IMG/VR virus record: IMGVR_UViG_3300034121_001395
Direction: 5' to 3' (one strand)
DNA from: a virus
DNA: 64,000 nucleotides
A program made the translations under genes and the position numbers. Below are positions 34,089-51,355 of the stretch, piece after piece. The notes beneath the pieces were generated by a model. That model was not told the DNA's origin. It saw only the letters and a list, made by a program, of their open reading frames with translations, and did no database searches. Numbering within the stretch: the first letter of the stretch is position 1; the number at the start of each line of letters is the position of its first letter.

Positions 34089-34421
34089 ATGAACACACAA
34101 CGAACAATACTAAAGGTTGAAAATAACGAGGCCGGAAAAACAATAATCTTTCATTTGAGGCGTGAGGTAAAAACTCATAATTTGAGAGAGCGTTTGAAAG
34201 AGATGGAGTCTCCAGACTATGTTGGAAAATTTAAACGAGTTGACCTCTATGGCCGCCTTGGAAAAAATAATCCAAATCGTCACAAATATTCTATTTCTAG
34301 TCGTCGCTCAATCTTTCGCAGCCACACTAGAATTCGTTTAGAAGATGCATCACACATTGCAGTCTATGTAAACAACGTCGTGCGCTCTAAGTTTGGTGGT
34401 TATACTCTCGTCTGTTCATGA
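34089..34421 (+). CDS. conserved phage hypothetical protein
   Basis: RVDLYGRLGKNNPN motif. Confidence 0.65.
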   Translation: MNTQRTILKVENNEAGKTIIFHLRREVKTHNLRERLKEMESPDYVGKFKRVDLYGRLGKNNPNRHKYSISSRRSIFRSHTRIRLEDASHIAVYVNNVVRSKFGGYTLVCS

Positions 34422-35014
34422 TTCCGGTTTTTCCCTCTCATAAGACTACACTCGTATTGACTGCAGGCTTTCAGCCGTGTGGATTTTTTTCTGCTCGGTC
34501 TGCAATTCGAAACATGATGGTTGGAGGCGTAAAAGCCTATGACCAGTATGGAAACATACGAGACTGGAGCAGCTGGATCGCGAACGACGATCATCTCAGT
34601 CCAAACAACCCTGCGCTGAGAAGTGTCGACACGCTGTGGGCAATTCCTACAATCGTGGTGGTTCCTGGCTATTTTGGTCACTACAAGCAAGGCAAAAAGC
34701 AGCCGCGCGCAATCAACCTTCGTCAGCTGTATTATATCTATGGAGGAGAATGTCAATATTGTCTAAAGAAAATTCCATACACTTCTGCGACTCGCGATCA
34801 TCTCATTCCTCGCAGTCGTGGAGGCGGCAACAACGACGACAATATCGTTCTCTCTTGCAAAAAGTGTAATACCAAAAAATCAAACAAGTTTCCATATTTC
34901 AACATTCACGGCTCTGAAGTAAAGCCTAAGATGCTAAAAGACATTGAGTTTAGCGCGCTTAGTGAAAAAGTTACGATTCGTGAAGAGTGGAAGGATTTTT
35001 TACAATATAAATAA
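34418..35014 (+). CDS. McrA-like HNH endonuclease
   Basis: CQYC, TRDHLIPRSRGG, NIVLSCKKCNTKK. Confidence 0.85.
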   Translation: MIPVFPSHKTTLVLTAGFQPCGFFSARSAIRNMMVGGVKAYDQYGNIRDWSSWIANDDHLSPNNPALRSVDTLWAIPTIVVVPGYFGHYKQGKKQPRAINLRQLYYIYGGECQYCLKKIPYTSATRDHLIPRSRGGGNNDDNIVLSCKKCNTKKSNKFPYFNIHGSEVKPKMLKDIEFSALSEKVTIREEWKDFLQYK

Positions 35015-35302: not shown

Positions 35303-35376
35303 CGCGAGTTAGAGTAGTGGTTACTCGGCAGTCTCATAAGCTGCATAGGTCGGTTCGATTCCGACACTCGCAACCA
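35303..35376 (+). tRNA. tRNA-Met(CAT), initiator-like
   Basis: cloverleaf, C1:A72 mismatch, CCA. Confidence 0.85.
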
Positions 35377-35384
35377 TTTTATAT

Positions 35385-35480
35385 GCTAGAGTGTCCTGAA
35401 TTGGTTAAAGGTCCTTCTTTATAAGGGGGTAGAATCGGTCATCGAGCCGTATGTGGGTTCGAGTCCCACCTCTAGTACCA
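35385..35480 (+). tRNA. tRNA with TAT anticodon (Ile) and long variable arm
   Basis: CCTTC-TTTATAA-GGGGG anticodon arm; 23-nt variable region; CCA. Confidence 0.8.
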
Positions 35481-35484
35481 CTTT

Positions 35485-35558
35485 CGCACGTTGGCAGAGA
35501 AGTCATGCAGTGGTCTGCAAAACCGCCTAGTCCAGAGCGTTACTGGAACGTGCGTCCA
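35485..35558 (+). tRNA. tRNA-Cys(GCA)
   Basis: cloverleaf, U73, atypical T-loop AGCGTTA. Confidence 0.85.
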
Positions 35559-35570
35559 TCTACAACCCAT

Positions 35571-35645
35571 GCTCACGTCGTCTAATGGTTAGGACTTGCG
35601 GTTTTCATCCGCACAATCGGGATTCGATTTCCCGCGTGAGTACCA
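35571..35645 (+). tRNA. tRNA-Glu(TTC)
   Basis: cloverleaf with CCA. Confidence 0.9.
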
Positions 35646-35659
35646 ATAAATAATACACC

Positions 35660-35887
35660 ATGAAAACTATATTTCGCACCTCAACATACGTCAAGGTCGG
35701 TCAATTTTACCTTTCAATAAAACTGCCACTTAAGAGCGGTGAACGTCGCTTTAGAGTCACTCGTGATCATTCACGCTTTCAAAACTATTTTGAAATGCAC
35801 GCTCTAGGATTTACATGCGGTCGCATGTGGTCTACTCATGCCCAACGTGCGAGTGAGAAGCGTTGGTTAAATTCACTCGAAGAATAA
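35660..35887 (+). CDS. hypothetical protein
   Basis: ORF within tRNA cluster. Confidence 0.55.
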   Translation: MKTIFRTSTYVKVGQFYLSIKLPLKSGERRFRVTRDHSRFQNYFEMHALGFTCGRMWSTHAQRASEKRWLNSLEE

Positions 35888-35891
35888 CACT

Positions 35892-36263
35892 ATGAAAATA
35901 TACATTGAACGATGGATGACTGAAACTGTCCACACTGGAAAGCTGTTTAGCATAGACACCGAAAAGTTGAGAGAACTCTATGATGAATATGCACATCTCT
36001 CTGACGAAGAACTCGTTGAACGCGTGAGCGAAGATTCTGAATGCGGCGAGCTTGATTGGCATGAACAGTACGAAGACGCCCTGTCTGCATGCGACATTTC
36101 AGGAGAAAACAGTCTAGTAAAGCTTCACACATCAGAGACCCTGCAAGACAATCTAGAATGGGGTGTCTGGCACAGAGGTCGTCTTACTCTCAATGAAGAA
36201 TATATAGACATTGATACAGAAAATTTTGAAGAGTTTGTCTCTAAAATTCCTCACTATAAATAA
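35892..36263 (+). CDS. acidic hypothetical protein
   Basis: ORF within tRNA cluster. Confidence 0.6.
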   Translation: MKIYIERWMTETVHTGKLFSIDTEKLRELYDEYAHLSDEELVERVSEDSECGELDWHEQYEDALSACDISGENSLVKLHTSETLQDNLEWGVWHRGRLTLNEEYIDIDTENFEEFVSKIPHYK

Positions 36264-36271
36264 CTTTACAA

Positions 36272-36346
36272 TCCGACTTAGCTCAGCGGCAGAGCGGGTG
36301 CCTGTTAAGCACTAGGTCCATGGTTCGATCCCATGAGTCGGAGCCA
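36272..36346 (+). tRNA. tRNA-Asn(GTT)
   Basis: cloverleaf with CCA. Confidence 0.92.
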
Positions 36347-36354
36347 ATTTTTAC

Positions 36355-36429
36355 GCCTCCTTAGCACAGTGGTAGTGCAGCTCATTTGTAATGAGCAGGT
36401 CGTCCGTTCGAATCGGACAGGAGGCTCCA
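36355..36429 (+). tRNA. tRNA-Thr(TGT)
   Basis: cloverleaf with CCA. Confidence 0.92.
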
Positions 36430-36438
36430 GTTTAAAGT

Positions 36439-36515
<77 letters not shown>

Positions 36516-36522
36516 TATTTTA

Positions 36523-36599
36523 CGGGATGTAGCTCAGCCTGGTAGAGCGCTGCGTTTGGGACGCAGATGTCGCATGTTCGAATCGTGTCATCCCGACCA
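36523..36599 (+). tRNA. tRNA-Pro(TGG)
   Basis: cloverleaf with CCA. Confidence 0.92.
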
Positions 36600-36635
36600 T
36601 TTATAGCTCAGTTGGTAATTTTTATAAATAATAAT

Positions 36636-37063
36636 ATGCTTCATAAACATCATATTATTCCACGACACATGGGAGGTACAGACGATCCCTCTAATATAAT
36701 TGAATTAACTATTGAGCAGCACGCAGATGCTCATAAAAAATTATATGAGCAACATGGTAAACTAGAAGATTATGTTGCTTGGAAAGGATTATCTGGACAA
36801 ATCAACAGAGAAGAAGTTATTGCTTATAAATGTTCTATGGGCGGTCATGCCAATAAAGACGTGCCAAAAAGCGAAGATCATAAAGCAAAAATTGCTATAA
36901 CATTAACGGGAACAACTCATACAGAGGAAAGAAAAAATAATATTGCTAAATCTGCCATTGGTAATAAAAATTCAAAAAATCATTCTAGCGAAGAATATAA
37001 ACAAAAACAAAGCGATGCAATGAAACAAGCTTGGGCTAGAAGAAAATTAAAACAATCAACAAA

Positions 37064-37073
<10 letters not shown>
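36636..37073 (+). CDS. HNH homing endonuclease with NUMOD3-like repeats
   Basis: HKHHIIPRHMGGTDDPSNIIELTIEQHADAH; SEDHKAKIA; TATAAATA 36623-36630. Confidence 0.85.
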
Positions 37074-37138
<65 letters not shown>

Positions 37139-37145
37139 TTTTTAA

Positions 37146-37223
37146 GGAGCGGTAGCTCAGTCTGGTTAGAGCGCCAGCCTGTCACGTTGGAGGTCGCGGG
37201 TTCGAGCCCCGTCCGCTCTGCCA
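37146..37223 (+). tRNA. tRNA-Asp(GTC)
   Basis: cloverleaf with CCA. Confidence 0.92.
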
Positions 37224-37231
37224 ATTTAATT

Positions 37232-37307
37232 GGTGGTTGTAGTTCAATGGTAGAGCCCCAGATTGTGATTCTGGTTGTTGCGGGTTCGAATCCGGTAACC
37301 TCCACCA
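37232..37307 (+). tRNA. tRNA-His(GTG), chimeric 3' end
   Basis: His-type 5' part with G-1; 3' end identical to tRNA-Ala so acceptor stem mispairs. Confidence 0.65.
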
Positions 37308-37311
37308 TTAT

Positions 37312-37386
37312 ACGTCATTGGTGTAACGGTAAGCACAAAGGTCTCCAAAACCTTTTGTCTCAGTTCGAATCTGAGGTGACGTGCCA
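37312..37386 (+). tRNA. tRNA-Trp(CCA)
   Basis: cloverleaf with CCA. Confidence 0.9.
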
Positions 37387-37387
37387 T

Positions 37388-37461
37388 AGAGGTATTGTGT
37401 AACGGTAGCACCACAGATTTTGATTCTGTTTGTCGAGGTTCGAATCCTTGTACCTCTACCA
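37388..37461 (+). tRNA. tRNA-Gln(TTG)
   Basis: cloverleaf with CCA. Confidence 0.9.
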
Positions 37462-37466
37462 ACTTT

Positions 37467-37577
37467 GCCGCTAGAGAGGTGCACGGGCTCCATGCCCGGT
37501 ATATAGATACAGATGACGTGCAGGACTGCGTATGCGGGTGCGTACGGGAATGTATCTATGTCGCCTCTCTAGTCGGC
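37467..37577 (+). ncRNA. unassigned branched structured RNA
   Basis: GCCG-CTAGAGAGG/CCTCTCTAG-CGGC and ATAGATACA/TGTATCTAT helices. Confidence 0.6.
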
Positions 37578-37589
37578 TCAATTTTCAAT

Positions 37590-37669
37590 CGCGGGGCAGT
37601 CAGTAGTGGTGCTGAACTAGTCTCATAAGCTAGGCTTCGGTGTGGGTTCGACTCCCACCCCCGCAACCA
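37590..37669 (+). tRNA. tRNA-Met(CAT), second initiator-like
   Basis: CGCGGGG/CCCCGCA acceptor with C1:A72. Confidence 0.8.
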
Positions 37670-37751
37670 ATTTTTAGCAATGGCAATCAGTGAGTTAAAT
37701 GCGCATAAGGCTTGAGATTCTGTGTGGGTCAATAACCATACATTGCTAAAT

Positions 37752-37837
37752 GGGTAGATGCCCGAGTGGCTAAAGGGGGCGGTCTGTAAAATCGCTGGCT
37801 TACGCCTACGCTGGTTCGAATCCAGCTCTGCCCACCA
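37752..37837 (+). tRNA. tRNA-Tyr(GTA)
   Basis: cloverleaf, long variable arm, CCA. Confidence 0.92.
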
Positions 37838-37955
37838 TCTTTGTATAAGTAATTTGCAACCGAGCTCAAGAAGAGTGGTGATGCGCATAGGTGATTAGGT
37901 TCACGCCTTCGGGTTAATATGACAAGTATGCCTGCGTAAGCTCTTCATATATTTT

Positions 37956-38055
37956 CAATGTATAGTGTAGTGGTAGCACGCCCCAAGCAAGGGGTTTCTT
38001 ATCCGATAGGATAGGCGACAACGCCGAGGTGATGGTTCGATTCCATCTGCATTGT
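37956..38055 (+). ncRNA. tRNA-like RNA with extra hairpins
   Basis: acceptor, D-arm and T-arm intact; three hairpins in between; no CCA. Confidence 0.6.
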
Positions 38056-38064
38056 TTAATTTTC

Positions 38065-38119
38065 GCGGGATTTGTATAATGGTAATACGCCATCCTTCCA
38101 AGTTGGAGTCATCAGTTCG
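38065..38119 (+). pseudogene. truncated tRNA-Gly(TCC)
   Basis: stops at T-loop GTTCG, fused directly to TATAAATA. Confidence 0.8.
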
Positions 38120-38136
38120 TATAAATAAATACATAT

Positions 38137-38904
38137 ATGAACTACAAAAAGATTTATGATAATCTGATAAAATATAGACAACAAAATATTTTATCAGATG
38201 GATATATTGAACGACACCACATTGTGCCTCGATCACTTGGTGGATCTGATGAAGAAACAAATATAGTGGCTTTAACAGGTCGTGAACATTATGTTGCTCA
38301 TTTACTTCTAGCAAGATATAATAAATGCAGTCAAACTATATATGCACTTTGTATGATGCAAATAAAAAATATTACGAACGAAGGGCGCCCTCTTATTAAA
38401 TCTGGTAGAATGTATGAATGGGCTCGTAAAGAATTTGCTAAATATGTAGCAAAAAATAATATGATTACCTCAAAAGGAGAACAAAATAGTCAATTTGGAA
38501 CTCGTTGGATATGTAATATAACTTTAAAAGAAAATCGTAAAATTTCTAAAGATAGTTTGATTCCAGACGGATGGATTGCCGGTCGCAATAAATGGAAACA
38601 TAAATACTTAACGCGAACAGCAAAGGGTTCTAAAGAACATAGAAATCGAGTAAGAGACGCACGTATAGGAAAAAAACTAAGTATTGAAACAAAAGAAAAA
38701 ATATCTAAAGCAAATAAAAAATCTCGTTTAGGCAATGAATCTTTAACTGGTAGGATTTGGATTAACAATGGAACAATTAACAAAGCAATACTAAAAAATG
38801 AATCTATACCAGAAGGATTTATTAAAGGAAAACTTTCGCGTCATAAGTGTTACGGCAGCACATTAGACTTCCACTCTGAAGGCGTGAGTTCGACCCTCAC
38901 ATGA
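38137..38904 (+). CDS. HNH homing endonuclease (MobE-like N-terminus)
   Basis: MNYKKIYDNLI, ERHHIVPRSLGG...NIVALTGREHYVAH; GTRWI/GRIWINNG repeats. Confidence 0.88.
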   Translation: MNYKKIYDNLIKYRQQNILSDGYIERHHIVPRSLGGSDEETNIVALTGREHYVAHLLLARYNKCSQTIYALCMMQIKNITNEGRPLIKSGRMYEWARKEFAKYVAKNNMITSKGEQNSQFGTRWICNITLKENRKISKDSLIPDGWIAGRNKWKHKYLTRTAKGSKEHRNRVRDARIGKKLSIETKEKISKANKKSRLGNESLTGRIWINNGTINKAILKNESIPEGFIKGKLSRHKCYGSTLDFHSEGVSSTLT

Positions 38905-38911
38905 CGCACCA
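38838..38911 (+). tRNA. tRNA-Gly(TCC) overlapping the HNH 3' end
   Basis: complete cloverleaf, CCA, A73. Confidence 0.85.
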
Positions 38912-38918
38912 ATTTCAA

Positions 38919-39023
38919 TGGGGTGAAGCTTAGCGGCTTCTATTCTCTTTATACCCTCTACGCTTGATGGGTGCACACTAGACAGCGCATGGTTTTAATA
39001 ATGACATGAGAATACCCCCACCA
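38919..39023 (+). ncRNA. unassigned structured RNA ending in CCA
   Basis: TGGGG/CCCCA and TATTCTC/GAGAATA helices, internal hairpins. Confidence 0.5.
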
Positions 39024-39024
39024 T

Positions 39025-39207
39025 TTTTTCCCTGCCATTGTAGGCATAGACACTGCAATGAGCGATTTGACAGAGAGCGGGTTAGCAACCCGATGATGAC
39101 AAACGTAATCCGACGCAAATTAAACTAGTCTTGGAGTCGCTACCAAGATGAAATAGTCACTGTGTTTCTTCAAAGCAACATCGTTGCTTCATCGGTAGTG
39201 GGGAAAA
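39025..39207 (+). ncRNA. unassigned multi-hairpin RNA
   Basis: TTTTCCC/GGGAAAA closure; CGGGTT/AACCCG, TCTTGG/CCAAGA, AAGCAAC/GTTGCTT hairpins. Confidence 0.55.
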
Positions 39208-39211
39208 CACT

Positions 39212-39283
39212 TTGCGAGAGGGATCATACGGAGATCGCTAGGCCCATAGTCTAGAGTGGAGGTTAAAGCCCTCCCCCTCGCAA
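39212..39283 (+). pseudogene. degenerate tRNA-like element (CAT loop)
   Basis: four arms can be drawn, but C33, T-loop TTAAAGC and no CCA. Confidence 0.45.
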
Positions 39284-39386
39284 TTCGTATCATGCGCGAA
39301 TCCAAATATGTCATGACGCAGCTAGGTGTGGTTCCTAGATAGCCCCAGCCCTGGGTGAGTGTAGCAGCAATCTGTTATGGGCAAAT

Positions 39387-39579
39387 ATTTAACGGGTATG
39401 TCGGCTTAGAAGTAGCCATCATATAAGAAGTGGAACTAAACGTGAAGAAGAGGTAATTCGTATGGATACAATTCAATCAAGCCATACACCCTTGCAAAAG
39501 GTACTGCGATACTCGTGAATTGCGTTTCATAGGACGAGCAATCGTAACTCCTTTGGTGTAACAACAACACCCGTTAAAT
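39387..39579 (+). ncRNA. RNA mimicking 23S rRNA H43-H44 (L11-binding GTPase-associated centre)
   Basis: ATGTCGGCTTAGAAGTAGCCATCAT and GTGTAACAAC inside an 11-bp closing helix. Confidence 0.75.
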
Positions 39580-39698
39580 TCATTTTCTATCGTGCGTTTT
39601 GATCGCCCGAAGTATTCAGAGAAAACAGACAGGAAAATGAGTGTAGCAGCAATCTGTCATGGGCAAATTTTCACAAAAATAAGTCCTGGAGGTCAGTT

Positions 39699-39798
39699 TT
39701 TCTCTATACGGGGCTTAACTTCGGGACCTTTTTTCACTTTTTTGAAAAAAGTTGTGTACTTTCTGTGGGTTTTATGCTATAATAACCATGTAAGCAAC
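39699..39798 (+). promoter_or_regulatory. early promoter cassette, copy 3
   Basis: near-identical to copies 2 and 4. Confidence 0.85.
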
Positions 39799-39810
39799 AC
39801 CAACCACAAT

Positions 39811-40023
39811 ATGAAAAACAAATCTTCAATATTTCTCTTATTAGGACGCGTAGACTATGAAGGCGACGACGTATTAGGAGCCTATAGCTCACTTAAAAAA
39901 GCAAATTGCGCACTAGATGCTTATAAGGCTAAGGTTGATGCTGATCGTGTCAACAATCATTATGAAAATACTGCGTATGATGATTATGTTATAAATGAAT
40001 GTGAGGTCAATGCTGAAGTCTGA
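39811..40023 (+). CDS. small early hypothetical protein
   Basis: DYEGDDVLGAYSSLKKA. Confidence 0.6.
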   Translation: MKNKSSIFLLLGRVDYEGDDVLGAYSSLKKANCALDAYKAKVDADRVNNHYENTAYDDYVINECEVNAEV

Positions 40024-40047
40024 TCTTTTGAGAAACTCCAATACAAT

Positions 40048-40236
40048 ATGAAACAGGACATCGATCAAAAGTTTACTGTCACTTGGAATTCTCCAACGCA
40101 AGCAAAGCGCAAGACAGTTATGTTCCGTAAGCAGAAAGACGCAGAGGAATTCTACGAAGAGAAGAAGGTCGCAAAGAGATCCCCTGCTCTATACATTACT
40201 GAAAAGATTACCTCTACGCGTCGGCTCAAAGCTTAA
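40048..40236 (+). CDS. hypothetical protein
   Basis: packed ORF. Confidence 0.55.
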   Translation: MKQDIDQKFTVTWNSPTQAKRKTVMFRKQKDAEEFYEEKKVAKRSPALYITEKITSTRRLKA

Positions 40237-40276
40237 CACATTAGTTGAGCACTAATAAACTCCACCACATCTTTAT

Positions 40277-40552
40277 ATGACTATCACTGAATCAATTGGC
40301 AAGAAAGTAAGGCATGGCTCTCACGGCTATCAAAATGAGGAGACAATCAAGCAAATCTCCTTTTTAAAAGACTCGGTAGAGATTGAGTTTGAATCGGGTG
40401 TCTTTTCGACCATGTCACCGGGTGAGTTTGGACACTTTATGCGATATGAAGAACTCTCTTATAAAGAGAAGCATCATGAAGGTTCAAGTTATATTTTCAG
40501 TTATATTTTCTTTTGTGACACTGAAAACCAATGGTATTCACTCATCGACTAA
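40277..40552 (+). CDS. hypothetical protein
   Basis: packed ORF. Confidence 0.55.
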   Translation: MTITESIGKKVRHGSHGYQNEETIKQISFLKDSVEIEFESGVFSTMSPGEFGHFMRYEELSYKEKHHEGSSYIFSYIFFCDTENQWYSLID

Positions 40553-40575
40553 AGCAACATCAACACTAAGACCGC

Positions 40576-40782
40576 ATGAAAACAAAACAATATTCGATTG
40601 TATTTCACACAGCTGAATGCTATATAGAAGCAATGACGTTAAGCGACATTCACACCTATAACGATGCCGATGCTGCAGAGATTGAGCTTTTCTGGAACAG
40701 CAAACATAAACGTGACAACGCGGTTCGTCTTCTTAAGCAACATGACATCGTTGTCGACACATATGACGGCGTACCAATATGA
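40576..40782 (+). CDS. hypothetical protein
   Basis: packed ORF. Confidence 0.55.
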   Translation: MKTKQYSIVFHTAECYIEAMTLSDIHTYNDADAAEIELFWNSKHKRDNAVRLLKQHDIVVDTYDGVPI

Positions 40783-40790
40783 AAACACTC

Positions 40791-40865
40791 GGGCATATGA
40801 TGTAATGGATAGCATCAGGGTCTTCTAAATCCTTCGCCTAGGTTCGAATCCTAGTATGCCCGCCA
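40791..40865 (+). tRNA. tRNA-Arg(TCT)
   Basis: cloverleaf with CCA. Confidence 0.92.
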
Positions 40866-40968
40866 AACTAATAAATAAAATTTCGGTACTGTGGTGGTAT
40901 CGCTTACAGGAGCATGAGGTCCCTAAAGTCGAACAAACATCTCGTCGACAACCTCTAAATTTTATAAT

Positions 40969-41053
40969 GGCTGTGTGATGAAATCGGTAAACATTGCGAA
41001 CTTAAAATTCGTTGCCTTATGGCTTGTCGGTTCGAGTCCGACCACAGCTACCA
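40969..41053 (+). tRNA. tRNA-Leu(TAA)
   Basis: cloverleaf, variable arm, CCA. Confidence 0.92.
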
Positions 41054-41065
41054 CCTTAAAAAATT

Positions 41066-41290
41066 ATGAATGAAGAACGCATAAAAACCTTGATTGAGGC
41101 AGAAGTAGAAGCGCTGCTCTCTGAAATAACTGAACTCAGAGAGAGAATAAGTAAACTTGAGCATGAATCATTTCATCTCAAAACTCAGAACATGAATAAT
41201 GCTGCTAAGCATGAGTATATCGGTCGTTGGAATCATAAAAAGATTGAAGATAAAACCAAGGTGACTTGCAACATAAGTAAACTAATTTAG
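41066..41290 (+). CDS. coiled-coil hypothetical protein
   Basis: 74-aa ORF. Confidence 0.55.
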   Translation: MNEERIKTLIEAEVEALLSEITELRERISKLEHESFHLKTQNMNNAAKHEYIGRWNHKKIEDKTKVTCNISKLI

Positions 41291-41338
41291 AATGATCTAG
41301 GACCTGAGCATGTCTTGAAAAGGTTTAACATAATAAAA

Positions 41339-41621
41339 GGGCTTGTAGCTCAGCGGTAAGAGCAGTCGACTCGATAGGGTCTTCTTATTAGAAATAGTAA
41401 GTTAGCAGAACTTAAATTCAGGGAACGCTTAACGGGTAATGCCGATGCCAATCCTGAGCGAAACCTCGAAAGAGGGACGTGCAGAGACTATAATAGTTCA
41501 ATCTTAACAGGTTATGCTGAAGATTAAGGGATAGTCCAGACCACAAACTGAAAAGGTAGTGAAAACTATAGTGGTAAGCATAATCGATTGGTCGCAGGTT
41601 CGAATCCTGCCGGGCCCACCA
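41339..41621 (+). tRNA. tRNA-Ile2(CAT) split by a group I intron
   Basis: exons 41339-41371 and 41579-41621 join to GTCGA-CTCATAA-TCGAT anticodon arm. Confidence 0.88.
41372..41578 (+). mobile_element. group I self-splicing intron (IC3-like, 207 nt, no ORF)
   Basis: P AAATTCAGGGAA, Q AATCCTGAGC, R GTGCAGAGACT, S GATAGTCC; P1 with U.G at splice site; terminal G. Confidence 0.9.
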
Positions 41622-41638
41622 TTATAAATAAATTTTTT

Positions 41639-41728
41639 GGGTGAATGGCAGAGCGGTTTATTGCACTTGTCTTGAAAACAAGAGTGGCTGAAAGGTCACC
41701 GTGGGTTCAAATCCTACTTCACCCGCCA
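41639..41728 (+). tRNA. tRNA-Ser(TGA)
   Basis: cloverleaf, long variable arm, G73. Confidence 0.92.
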
Positions 41729-41822
41729 TTTTTGGAACGTTGGCTGAGTGGCTGAAAGGTCACCGTGGGTTCAAATCCTACTTCACCCGCCATTTTTGGA
41801 ACGTTGGCTGAGTGGCTGAAAG
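41682..41822 (+). repeat. exact 64-bp tandem duplication between the two Ser tRNAs
   Basis: units start 41682 and 41746; bounded by GAGTGGCTGAAAG. Confidence 0.9.
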
Positions 41823-41887
41823 CACTCCCTTGCTAAGGGAACGTAGGGGTGACTCTACCGTAGGTTCAAATCCTACACGTTCCGCCG
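41798..41887 (+). tRNA. tRNA-Ser(GCT)
   Basis: cloverleaf; ends GCCG rather than GCCA. Confidence 0.88.
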
Positions 41888-41907
41888 ACACATATAGATA
41901 CTTTTAT

Positions 41908-41982
41908 GGGGAGTTAGCTCAGCGATAGAGCATCTCGTTTACACCGAGTCGGCCGGGGGTTTGAATCCCTCACTCCCCACCA
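41908..41982 (+). tRNA. tRNA-Val(TAC)
   Basis: cloverleaf with CCA. Confidence 0.88.
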
Positions 41983-42015
41983 CTTCTCCCCCTGAAAAAC
42001 AAAATGAACTATAAT

Positions 42016-42744
42016 ATGAAAAAACAAACACAAATCGTTAAAATTGGTATGATTGCAGCACTTGCTGCTCTTAACTATGCATACGCTGGTACAATCGAAG
42101 ACGCTCCTTCAGCATTCACGCCGGTGATGCTTGAAACTGGCTACTCTTCTGATAAGGTCTGGCGTGGTGCTGATCTAGGCGCAAATGAAGCAAATGCAAT
42201 CGTCACAACGACAACTGAACTTCCTGCGGACGTTTCGTTGGCTTTGAGCGCTGACTATGCAAACGCTGAAACAACTGGGAAGGACGAAGCTACTGAGCTG
42301 TCTGCAATCTTCTCTAAGAGTATTGCTGACTATCTCGTATCTTTGAGCTATACCTGGTATTCGCAGGACTATGCAGGCCAGGAAGGACAAGCGCAAGAAG
42401 CTGGCTTGACTGTATCACGTGCAGTTGGTCCAATCGATCTTTCGCTTACTCAGTATATGAGTATTGTAGGTGATAACAATGCTTACAGCGAACTTGCTGC
42501 AACATACAGTGATGACTTTGGATCTTCATTGATGCTTGACTTTCGTGCTGAGCTTGGTTATCTCGCTCAAGAAGGACAGTGCACTCATTTTGAGACCACT
42601 ATGTCGACTGACATTCCAGTTGTGCAAGGTGTGACCGCTGTCCCGTTTGTTTCGTACTCACTCGGTCTTGATGACTCGGTTGGCGTGCATTCAGACATGA
42701 AGAATCTTTTCTTCGGTGGAATTGAGTTTAAGAAGTCGTTCTAA
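42016..42744 (+). CDS. outer-membrane beta-barrel / putative porin (Gcw_chp/TorF-like)
   Basis: signal peptide AYA, SSDKVWRG, amphipathic strands, C-terminal Phe. Confidence 0.7.
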   Translation: MKKQTQIVKIGMIAALAALNYAYAGTIEDAPSAFTPVMLETGYSSDKVWRGADLGANEANAIVTTTTELPADVSLALSADYANAETTGKDEATELSAIFSKSIADYLVSLSYTWYSQDYAGQEGQAQEAGLTVSRAVGPIDLSLTQYMSIVGDNNAYSELAATYSDDFGSSLMLDFRAELGYLAQEGQCTHFETTMSTDIPVVQGVTAVPFVSYSLGLDDSVGVHSDMKNLFFGGIEFKKSF

Positions 42745-42763
42745 TAGATAATAGAATAAAAAC

Positions 42764-42800
42764 AAAAACGGAGCCTTCTCTATGTTGGCTCCGTTTTTTT
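42764..42800 (+). terminator. intrinsic terminator
   Basis: ACGGAGCC/GGCTCCGT plus T run. Confidence 0.8.
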
Positions 42801-42806
42801 ATTATA

Positions 42807-42890
42807 GGGCAAGTGGTGTAATGGTAGCCACGCTAGATTTAGGATCTAGTGCAGTGATGCGTGAGGGTTCGAGTCCCTCCTTGCCCACCA
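42807..42890 (+). tRNA. tRNA-Leu(TAG)
   Basis: cloverleaf with CCA. Confidence 0.92.
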
Positions 42891-51028: not shown

Positions 51029-51355
51029 GGGTGTGACATGGTTTCGACATGACATTTGAAGCAATATATGCAATGCACAGTCTGCACGACTCTAAGTGCA
51101 AGAGAAAAACGAAAAAGATACACTAGCTCTCGCGGCATAACCGCACCAACGCATCAACTCCGATAACATGCGTTGGTACAGAGGAGGGTCGGATAATTGT
51201 ATATCGAAAATATAATAGACTCATCGATTCGAATATTGATGCGGGATTGCTCGACAACAATCTAGGTTGTGATTGTCCTAACATCAATCAATAAATTGTA
51301 GAAGTATATTGCCGAGAAGTCATGGACTGGAGTTCGATCCTCCACACATCCACCA
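51029..51355 (+). ncRNA. ssrA: tmRNA
   Basis: GGGTGTG/CACATCC-ACCA with G3:U, T-arm, pk1, tag ORF ending LALAA*. Confidence 0.92.

Follow-up and report, generated by a model that had tools for sequence, protein, structure and literature searches.

In the tRNA island of a freshwater T4-like phage, a tRNA(CAU) gene, most likely encoding tRNA-Ile2, is interrupted between U33 and C34 by what is with high probability a true group I intron belonging to the compact type known from bacterial tRNAs (IC3-like, 207 nt, without an ORF). Judged by its sequence, this phage-encoded intron is real and well preserved. The respective combination of tRNA and insertion site is already catalogued in bacteria and does not represent a new mechanism. 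All positions refer to a window of 64,000 nt, the whole stretch of DNA that was analyzed (IMG/VR record IMGVR_UViG_3300034121_001395). The window has a GC content of 39% and encodes UvsX, a gp41-like helicase, both ribonucleotide reductase subunits, PhoH and a virion structural protein; its source is a T4-like phage from a lake or freshwater habitat.

Localization and Borders of the Split tRNA Gene

Reading of the sequence divided the tRNA(CAU) gene into segments of 33, 207 and 43 nt (Table 1). When introns were allowed, ARAGORN returned the gene as tRNA(cat) 41339-41621, i(34,207), with the same borders as the initial annotation, whose coordinates for an insert of 207 nt between U33 and C34 thus proved exact. 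Exon 1 (GGGCUUGUAGCUCAGCGGUAAGAGCAGUCGACU) terminates with ...GUCGACU, the intron extends from CGAUAGGGUC to GUGGUAAG, and exon 2 (CAUAAUCGAUUGGUCGCAGGUUCGAAUCCUGCCGGGCCCACCA) starts with CAUAAUCG (CAUAAUCGAU) and ends with an encoded CCA. Because intron and exon 2 both begin with C, a shift of both borders by one base results in the same spliced product. Only the borders chosen in the initial annotation, however, place a U before the 5′ splice site and a G before the 3′ splice site. In related variants the intron begins with U and the borders are unambiguous there. The spliced 76-mer forms a canonical cloverleaf with the anticodon loop CUCAUAA (ARAGORN).

ORFs of at least 50 aa overlapping the 207-nt insert were absent from either strand. 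The description as a compact, ORF-less element therefore held, and an intron-borne homing endonuclease is absent.

In the default mode, ARAGORN listed 21 tRNAs in the island (35303-42890) and the split tRNA(CAU) was not among them; likewise, Rfam models applied at gathering scores gave no match at its site. Since default ARAGORN and curated Rfam miss this gene, phage tRNA sets and codon-supply arguments are undercounted wherever introns of this kind occur.

Table 1. Features of the split tRNA(CAU) gene and of further split tRNA genes in a closely related island. Positions are those of the window unless a contig is named.
Feature	Position	Strand	Characteristics
tRNA(CAU) exon 1	41339..41371	+	tRNA positions 1-33: acceptor 5′ strand, D arm, anticodon-stem 5′ strand, C32-U33; ARAGORN intron mode
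Group I intron	41372..41578	+	207 nt, ORF-less; RF00028 full-length match, covariation, bacterial profile match
tRNA(CAU) exon 2	41579..41621	+	C34-A35-U36, rest of anticodon arm, variable loop, T arm, acceptor 3′ strand, A73, encoded CCA; ARAGORN and helix analysis
P1	41368..41381	+	5′ exon GACU and intron C, loop GAUA, internal guide GGGUC; wobble U33(41371).G40(41378) at 5′ splice site
P2 hairpin	41384..41401	+	7 bp, GAAA loop (41391-41394); one pair changed on both sides, two on one side
P3 5′ strand GAACU	41408..41412	+	pairs with 41495-41499 (AGUUC); crosses P7, forming a pseudoknot
P4-P5-P5a domain	41418..41457	+	P4 41418-41423 / 41452-41457; P5 and P5a 41427-41448; internal loop CUUAAC / GAUG
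P6 and P6a	41458..41480	+	GAAA loop; aligns with GCC...GGU P6 of bacterial introns in the Williams seed alignment
P7 5′ strand G(A)GACUA	41484..41490	+	pairs with 41532-41537 (UAGUCC); invariant in 5/5 variants
P8 and P8a hairpin	41500..41525	+	AA bulge (CUUAAC ... GAAG); three pairs changed on both sides
P9 (ACCAC/GUGGU) enclosing P9a	41540..41575	+	P9a GAAA loop (41561-41564); 4/5 P9a pairs changed on both sides; followed by AAG
Terminal G (omega G)	41578..41578	+	directly 5′ of the 3′ splice site; conserved in all variants; aligns with terminal G of bacterial introns
Split tRNA genes of L011 (also in L018)	L011:112-384 and L011:5359-5644		two further group I introns

Assignment to the Group I Introns

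Several lines of evidence agree on the classification as a group I intron proposed in the initial annotation, namely a full-length match to the Rfam model RF00028 (Intron_gpI), the borders found by ARAGORN and a covarying fold. The RF00028 match covers 41357-41560 and model positions 1-253 with 42.3 bits, corresponding to an E-value of 1.1e-9 in a search of 361 nt and of 2e-7 over the whole window, in which it is the sole match of this model. The comparison with the Rfam model, suggested in advance as a check, was thus positive with respect to length and window-wide significance, but the score falls short of the curated gathering score of 50 bits. Related phage tRNA introns reached 47.2, 49.9, 61.3 and 73.3 bits, two of them above the curated cut-off. 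The 12 Rfam seed sequences in use at that time included no bacterial one, and matches down to 18-20 bits were used in a survey of bacterial tRNA introns (Williams, 2020, bioRxiv 10.1101/2020.01.27.920355).

A profile HMM built from 62 bacterial tRNA-Leu(UAA) introns (type Leu.3Ug) gave a single match in the window (nhmmer, 41405-41578, E 9.4e-17), and its alignment stops at the same terminal G (GGUAAG). The score is partly circular because the 62 bacterial introns had been chosen by a 17-mer which they share with the window. In blastn comparisons the intron showed approximately 70% identity over 150-167 nt to the bacterial loci L131 and L183.

The core elements named in the initial annotation were all recovered from the sequence: the P/Q elements of P4 (UCAGGG / UCCUGA), the R/S elements of P7 (GAGACUA / UAGUCC), P1 in the form GACU|C-GAUA-GGGUC with the U33.G40 wobble at the 5′ splice site, and the terminal G.

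Conserved Fold and Covariation

For the analysis of covariation five distinct pre-tRNAs from viral contigs were aligned and compared with the P1-P9 fold and the tRNA helices. Within this set 99.2% of the positions expected to pair were paired, and 20 base pairs were changed on both sides, 13 of which are intronic (P2, P3 twice, P4, P5a, P6a, P8 three times and P9a four times). As a control, partners were slid by 1-3 columns, whereupon pairing dropped to 35-44% and only 1-2 pairs with changes on both sides were counted. In P3 the two exchanged pairs are seen as GAAUG/CAUUC in L030, and in P4 as well as P5a a G-C pair is replaced by A-U. The acceptor and D helices of exon 1 were likewise 100% paired in the five variants, with changes on both sides. 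Covariation is mute on P7, P9 and P6 because these helices never vary.

The U.G pair of P1 was kept in 5/5 variants, the following pair being C-G or U.G. The letters of P7 are identical in bacterial tRNA introns, and guanosine is expected to bind at the G-C pair that follows the bulged A. GAAA loops cap P2 and P9a, and the internal loops of P5 and P8 are placed correctly, with the variant letters CUUAAC/GAUG and CUUAAC/GAAG; the AA-bulged motif of P8 is a possible tetraloop receptor. P10 comprises at most one base pair, so that the exons would have to be aligned by the anticodon stem.

We infer that the tRNA(CAU) intron is able to splice, and its putative mechanism was drawn by homology with the pre-tRNA introns of Azoarcus and Anabaena. 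After folding of the pre-tRNA, G30-U33 of the exon would pair with the intron guide GGUC to form P1 with U33.G40. A free guanosine docked at the P7 G-C pair would attack after U33. The terminal G would then take the guanosine site and the freed 3′-OH of U33 would attack after this G, by which ...GACU is joined to CAUAAUCG... The predicted ligated junction reads ...GCAGUCGACU|CAUAAUCGAUUGG... and the product would be the 76-nt tRNA.

Alternatively, the intron could be a decayed relic which no longer splices, and the gene an inactive tRNA pseudogene which the island carries along. A score under the curated Rfam cut-off and an intron without homing endonuclease gene would both suit such a relic. 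We regard it as very improbable, since the core helices are all intact, no variation is seen in P7, J8/7, the U.G pair or the terminal G, and the 207-nt intron is 100% identical in five other contigs. Moreover, pairing was kept in the 13 intron pairs and the further exon pairs with changes on both sides, which points to purifying selection on ribozyme and tRNA.

Identity of the Interrupted tRNA

According to the initial annotation, removal of the insert gives a clean Ile2-type tRNA. The clean cloverleaf was confirmed by ARAGORN, but the Ile2 identity is only likely, as the spliced tRNA is identical to E. coli tRNA-Ile(CAU) at 63/76 positions and to elongator tRNA-Met at 62/80 positions in global alignments, which is a small margin. 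The best full-length match of the 76-mer in E. coli was tRNA-Ile (CAT) with 82.9% identity. Exon 2 alone gave tRNA-Lys as best E. coli match and proved uninformative on identity, for which the full spliced 76-mer is required.

Individual structural elements are more distinctive. The anticodon arm GUCGA-CUCAUAA-UCGAU, the variable loop UGGUC and the D loop of 8 nt agree with E. coli tRNA-Ile(CAU) (GGCGA...UCGCU, UGGUC), whereas E. coli tRNA-Met differs in all of them (CAUCA...UGAUG, GGGUC, D loop of 9 nt). All four phage variants retain the wobble pair G27.U43. Furthermore, the spliced tRNA contains C4-G69, U12-A23, C29-G41 and A73, which we take to be determinants for the E. coli enzymes IleRS and TilS. 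AUA is a frequent codon in the long ORFs of the phage (16.3 per 1000 codons, 23% of the Ile codons). An initiator tRNA can be dismissed because the C1.A72 mismatch is lacking. On these sequence features we consider the host tRNA to be tRNA-Ile2 with good, though not full, confidence. Lysidine modification of C34 by a TilS of the host would then enable the tRNA to read AUA; a TilS gene was not found among the approximately 37 ORFs of the window scanned against Pfam.

The same intron could instead reside in an elongator tRNA-Met, as a representative of the Met.2Ug type, which is also present in the bacterial seed alignment (Williams, 2020). Beside the similar overall identity, this assignment is favored by ARAGORN, which calls Met solely on the basis of the anticodon, and by most GenBank phage records, in which a similar 3′ half is labeled tRNA-Met. 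In addition, the two other CAU tRNAs of the window (35303-35376 and 37590-37669, the second with 80 nt) both have the initiator-like C1.A72 mismatch, so that the island contains no other obvious elongator tRNA-Met. Anticodon arm, variable loop, D-loop length, the conserved G27.U43 pair, the presumed IleRS/TilS determinants and the frequent AUA codons all argue against it, and we judge an elongator tRNA-Met to be unlikely.

Comparison with Known Group I Introns

The classical types of bacterial tRNA introns are Leu.3Ug, Arg.5Ug, fMet.2Ug and the Azoarcus type Ile2.5Ug (Williams, 2020). This list is in agreement with the background of the initial annotation, which named tRNA-Leu, fMet, Arg and Ile as bacterial hosts, assigned the site after U33 to the fMet type and located the Azoarcus intron after the anticodon. 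The same study raised the number of tRNA/site combinations in bacteria from 4 to 21, and its seed alignment holds Gba28.Ile2.2Ug, an intron in the same type of tRNA and at the same site as the phage intron, which occupies position 2 in this numbering (Williams, 2020). Both introns are compact and ORF-less, are inserted behind U33, the second position of the loop, have U at -1 as well as G at omega, and share the layout of P1 (GGCU|CA...UGGGCC in Gba28, GACU|C...GGGUC in the phage). The Gba28 intron, however, has a bacterial host and not a phage, and its 3′ half consists of AUGAUAUAGUCCGACA followed by a GUAA hairpin, whereas that of the phage intron reads AAGGGAUAGUCCAGACCACAAAC...GAAA...GUGGUAAG. 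In this part the phage intron is closer to the Leu.3Ug, Thr.3Ug and fMet.2Ug seeds than to Gba28. Read from the published alignment rather than from a tree, this difference means that the phage intron probably reached the U33 site independently.

The tRNA-Ile intron of Azoarcus shares the host tRNA species and is of nearly the same size (205 nt in a precursor of 284 nt, compared with 207 nt in 283 nt). Both introns consist of P1-P9 without P5abc and lack an ORF; in both, P2 and P9 are capped by GAAA, and internal loops resembling receptors are present in P5 and P8. They differ in the insertion site, which follows the anticodon in Azoarcus (36/37) and precedes it in the phage (33/34), and in the receptor, which is the classical CCUAAG/UAUGG in Azoarcus. 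Self-splicing and structures are experimental in Azoarcus and predicted in the phage.

With the Leu.3Ug introns of cyanobacteria, plastids and other bacteria and with the cyanobacterial fMet.2Ug introns the phage intron has the core sequences in common (AAAUUC-GGGAA, CAAUCC-GAGC, GAGACUA, AAGGGAUAGUCCAGACCAC and a GAAA-capped P9 ending with GGUAAG), and with fMet.2Ug also the site after U33. In contrast to these, it interrupts another tRNA, does not possess the additional hairpin separating P9 from P9a and belongs to the shortest introns.

Introns in protein genes of phages (T4 td/nrdB/nrdD type) are phage-borne as well. Short core stretches with 77-89% identity were found in the introns of the Staphylococcus phage IME1323_01 lysin, a crAss-like helicase and the primase/helicase of Pseudoalteromonas phage RIO-1, and one phage protein-gene intron with a similar core is annotated as "group I mobile intron". 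However, these introns interrupt coding sequences and are often accompanied by GIY-YIG or HNH genes, which the tRNA(CAU) intron lacks. A review from 2014 stated that all phage introns known at that time were located in protein-coding genes (PMC3984707), a summary which is contradicted by the split tRNA(CAU) gene. A full-text search outside subscription journals yielded no paper on group I introns in phage tRNA genes. The residence of tRNA group I introns in phages is thus hardly published and evidently common in uncultured phages. The present case is less singular since Ile2.2Ug has already been catalogued in bacteria and such introns are frequent in tRNA genes of uncultured phages. It further points to a compact ribozyme lineage of 207 nt moving among phage tRNA genes.

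Distribution in Viral and Bacterial Sequences

A 21-mer of the core was present in 13 IMG/VR contigs and a 17-mer of the core in 83 viral contigs. Within the viral contigs carrying these core k-mers, the intron occupies one and the same site in tRNA(CAU) genes of four kinds, which diverge by 20-25% in their exons. Split tRNAs were counted from ARAGORN split calls around the 17-mer, filtered by the rule of U(-1) and G(omega). By this count 45 of the 83 viral contigs with the 17-mer carry split tRNAs, comprising tRNA(CAU) interrupted after U33 (15), tRNA-Leu(UAA) (15) as well as Arg(UCU), Ala, Asn, Lys, Ser and others. Application of the same rule to bacteria resulted in 89 split-tRNA loci, mostly Leu(UAA).

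A viral tRNA-Leu(UAA) at L085:1107-1407 (- strand) harbors an intron which is 79% identical to the window intron over the full length; this similarity suggests that the lineage has moved between tRNA types in phages.

Group I-like inserts in tRNA genes were also observed in the GenBank records of two cultured phages. Microcoleus phage My-WqHQDG (OR578706.1, L331:309-594) has a "tRNA-Arg" feature of 286 nt with the anticodon CCU and an insert of 213 nt after the anticodon. In Agrobacterium phage Atu_ph07 (MF403008.1, L332:245-606) an unannotated split tRNA-Leu(UAA) with an insert of 278 nt is partly overlapped by a CDS for a "hypothetical protein". RF00028 did not match either insert at E <=0.001.

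Turnover of Introns and Nuclease Cassettes in tRNA Islands

Two contigs, L011 and L018, share the tRNA island with the window at 92-99% identity, and the tRNA(CAU) gene with its intron is 99.3% identical. Both contain additional introns of 198 nt in tRNA-Asn(GUU) (RF00028, 73.3 bits) and of 203 nt in tRNA-Leu(UAA) (61.3 bits), and the orthologous genes of the window (Asn, 36272-36346; Leu, 40969-41053) are uninterrupted at exactly those sites.

In G001, the nearest record compared, the orthologous tRNA(CAU) gene is reduced to positions 1-27 and about the last 20 nt, and RF00028 gave no match in this record. Between the tRNA remnants (L002:1511-2204) lies a SegE-like gene with GIY-YIG and NUMOD3 domains (L002, about 1566-2089), followed by a complete, different tRNA(CAU) gene (L002:2099-2174). 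The left break is 6 nt away from the intron site. At the junction GAGCAG|GGGTCT the six letters after the left break equal the guide sequence of the intron. The cassette may have landed in an intron-bearing allele of which GGGTCT was retained; a chance match would explain the six letters as well, and the similarity further downstream is weak. As the close relatives differ at their tRNA loci in this way, introns and nuclease cassettes are gained or lost within a short time in this lineage. With regard to the pseudogene explanation discussed above, loss of the gene to a nuclease cassette means that the tRNA may be dispensable; the relative without the gene gained another tRNA(CAU) in the same cassette, however, and thus the function seems to be kept.

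A clean empty site for the tRNA(CAU) gene was not found when the spliced-junction 20-mer was searched in viral contigs; the best among the matches listed was 67/76 identical. Two intron-less tRNAs (L227 and L301) share 69/76 positions with the L009-type variant; owing to their unrelated flanks they do not represent empty sites.

Between the lineage of the window and those of L006 and L009 the introns are more alike (identity 0.89-0.92) than the exons (0.75-0.76, calculated from only 76 exon positions), which hints at lateral spread. We infer that the intron is a selfish and roughly neutral passenger which would be spread by recombination or by nucleases acting in trans.

A different role is conceivable if the ORF-less intron is not neutral. 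It might be kept because it breaks the DNA target of free-standing homing endonucleases directed at phage tRNA(CAU) genes, or it might be mobilized by such enzymes in trans ("collaborative homing"). Two free-standing homing endonuclease genes are indeed located inside the tRNA island of the window, one at 34418-35014 (HNH, Pfam E 1e-14) and one at 38137-38904 (phrog_655 "homing endonuclease", E 7e-38), and an HNH gene is situated about 600 nt upstream of the L030 variant. The overwritten orthologue in G001 with its break next to the intron site, the higher conservation of the intron than of the exons between lineages and the presence or absence of introns in tRNA-Asn and tRNA-Leu of near-identical islands also fit this explanation. 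On the other hand, an endonuclease gene was not found beside the intron in the window, L006 or L009, the high intron identity can also be due to a strongly constrained ribozyme, and independent selfish elements with a common hot spot fit the pattern equally well. We hold this role to be rather unlikely and prefer the neutral passenger.

In a broader sense, one may speculate that phage tRNA islands are a contest ground in which ORF-less introns and cassettes of endonuclease and tRNA compete for one target in the anticodon arm, where the intron either gives immunity or rides on nucleases in trans. We consider this idea rather improbable; if true, it would amount to a tRNA-gene version of collaborative homing, which has reportedly been described for psbA of cyanophages. 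The more interesting aspect is a possible interaction of ORF-less introns with free-standing nucleases by which the same genes are overwritten; the present evidence is compatible with it. The three near-identical tRNA islands, which differ in the carriage of introns and nuclease cassettes, offer a natural system for the spread of ORF-less introns.

Further Observations on tRNA Genes

Some additional irregularities were noticed in the tRNA islands. In L011:393-975 a complete tRNA (901-972) is preceded, at a distance of about 440 nt, by a partial one (Rfam model positions 8-63 at 400-456), an arrangement resembling a further cassette insertion with duplication of part of a tRNA. Two over-long tRNA-like genes of the window, 35385-35480 (96 nt) and 37956-38055 (100 nt), reached only about 41 bits with the tRNA model. 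The first was called Ile(UAU) by ARAGORN and has a long extra arm; in the second, the anticodon loop is odd and the variable region very long. The window also includes a full-length phage tmRNA gene (51029-51355; Rfam RF00023, 82.3 bits). Finally, a perfect tandem duplication of 64 bp (41682-41822; 2.2 copies, 100% identical) is located between tRNA-Ser(UGA) and tRNA-Ser(GCU). It creates a chimera of the 5′ part of Ser(GCU) and the 3′ part of Ser(UGA), joined at the shared word GGCTGAAAG, and derives either from unequal recombination or from an assembly artefact.
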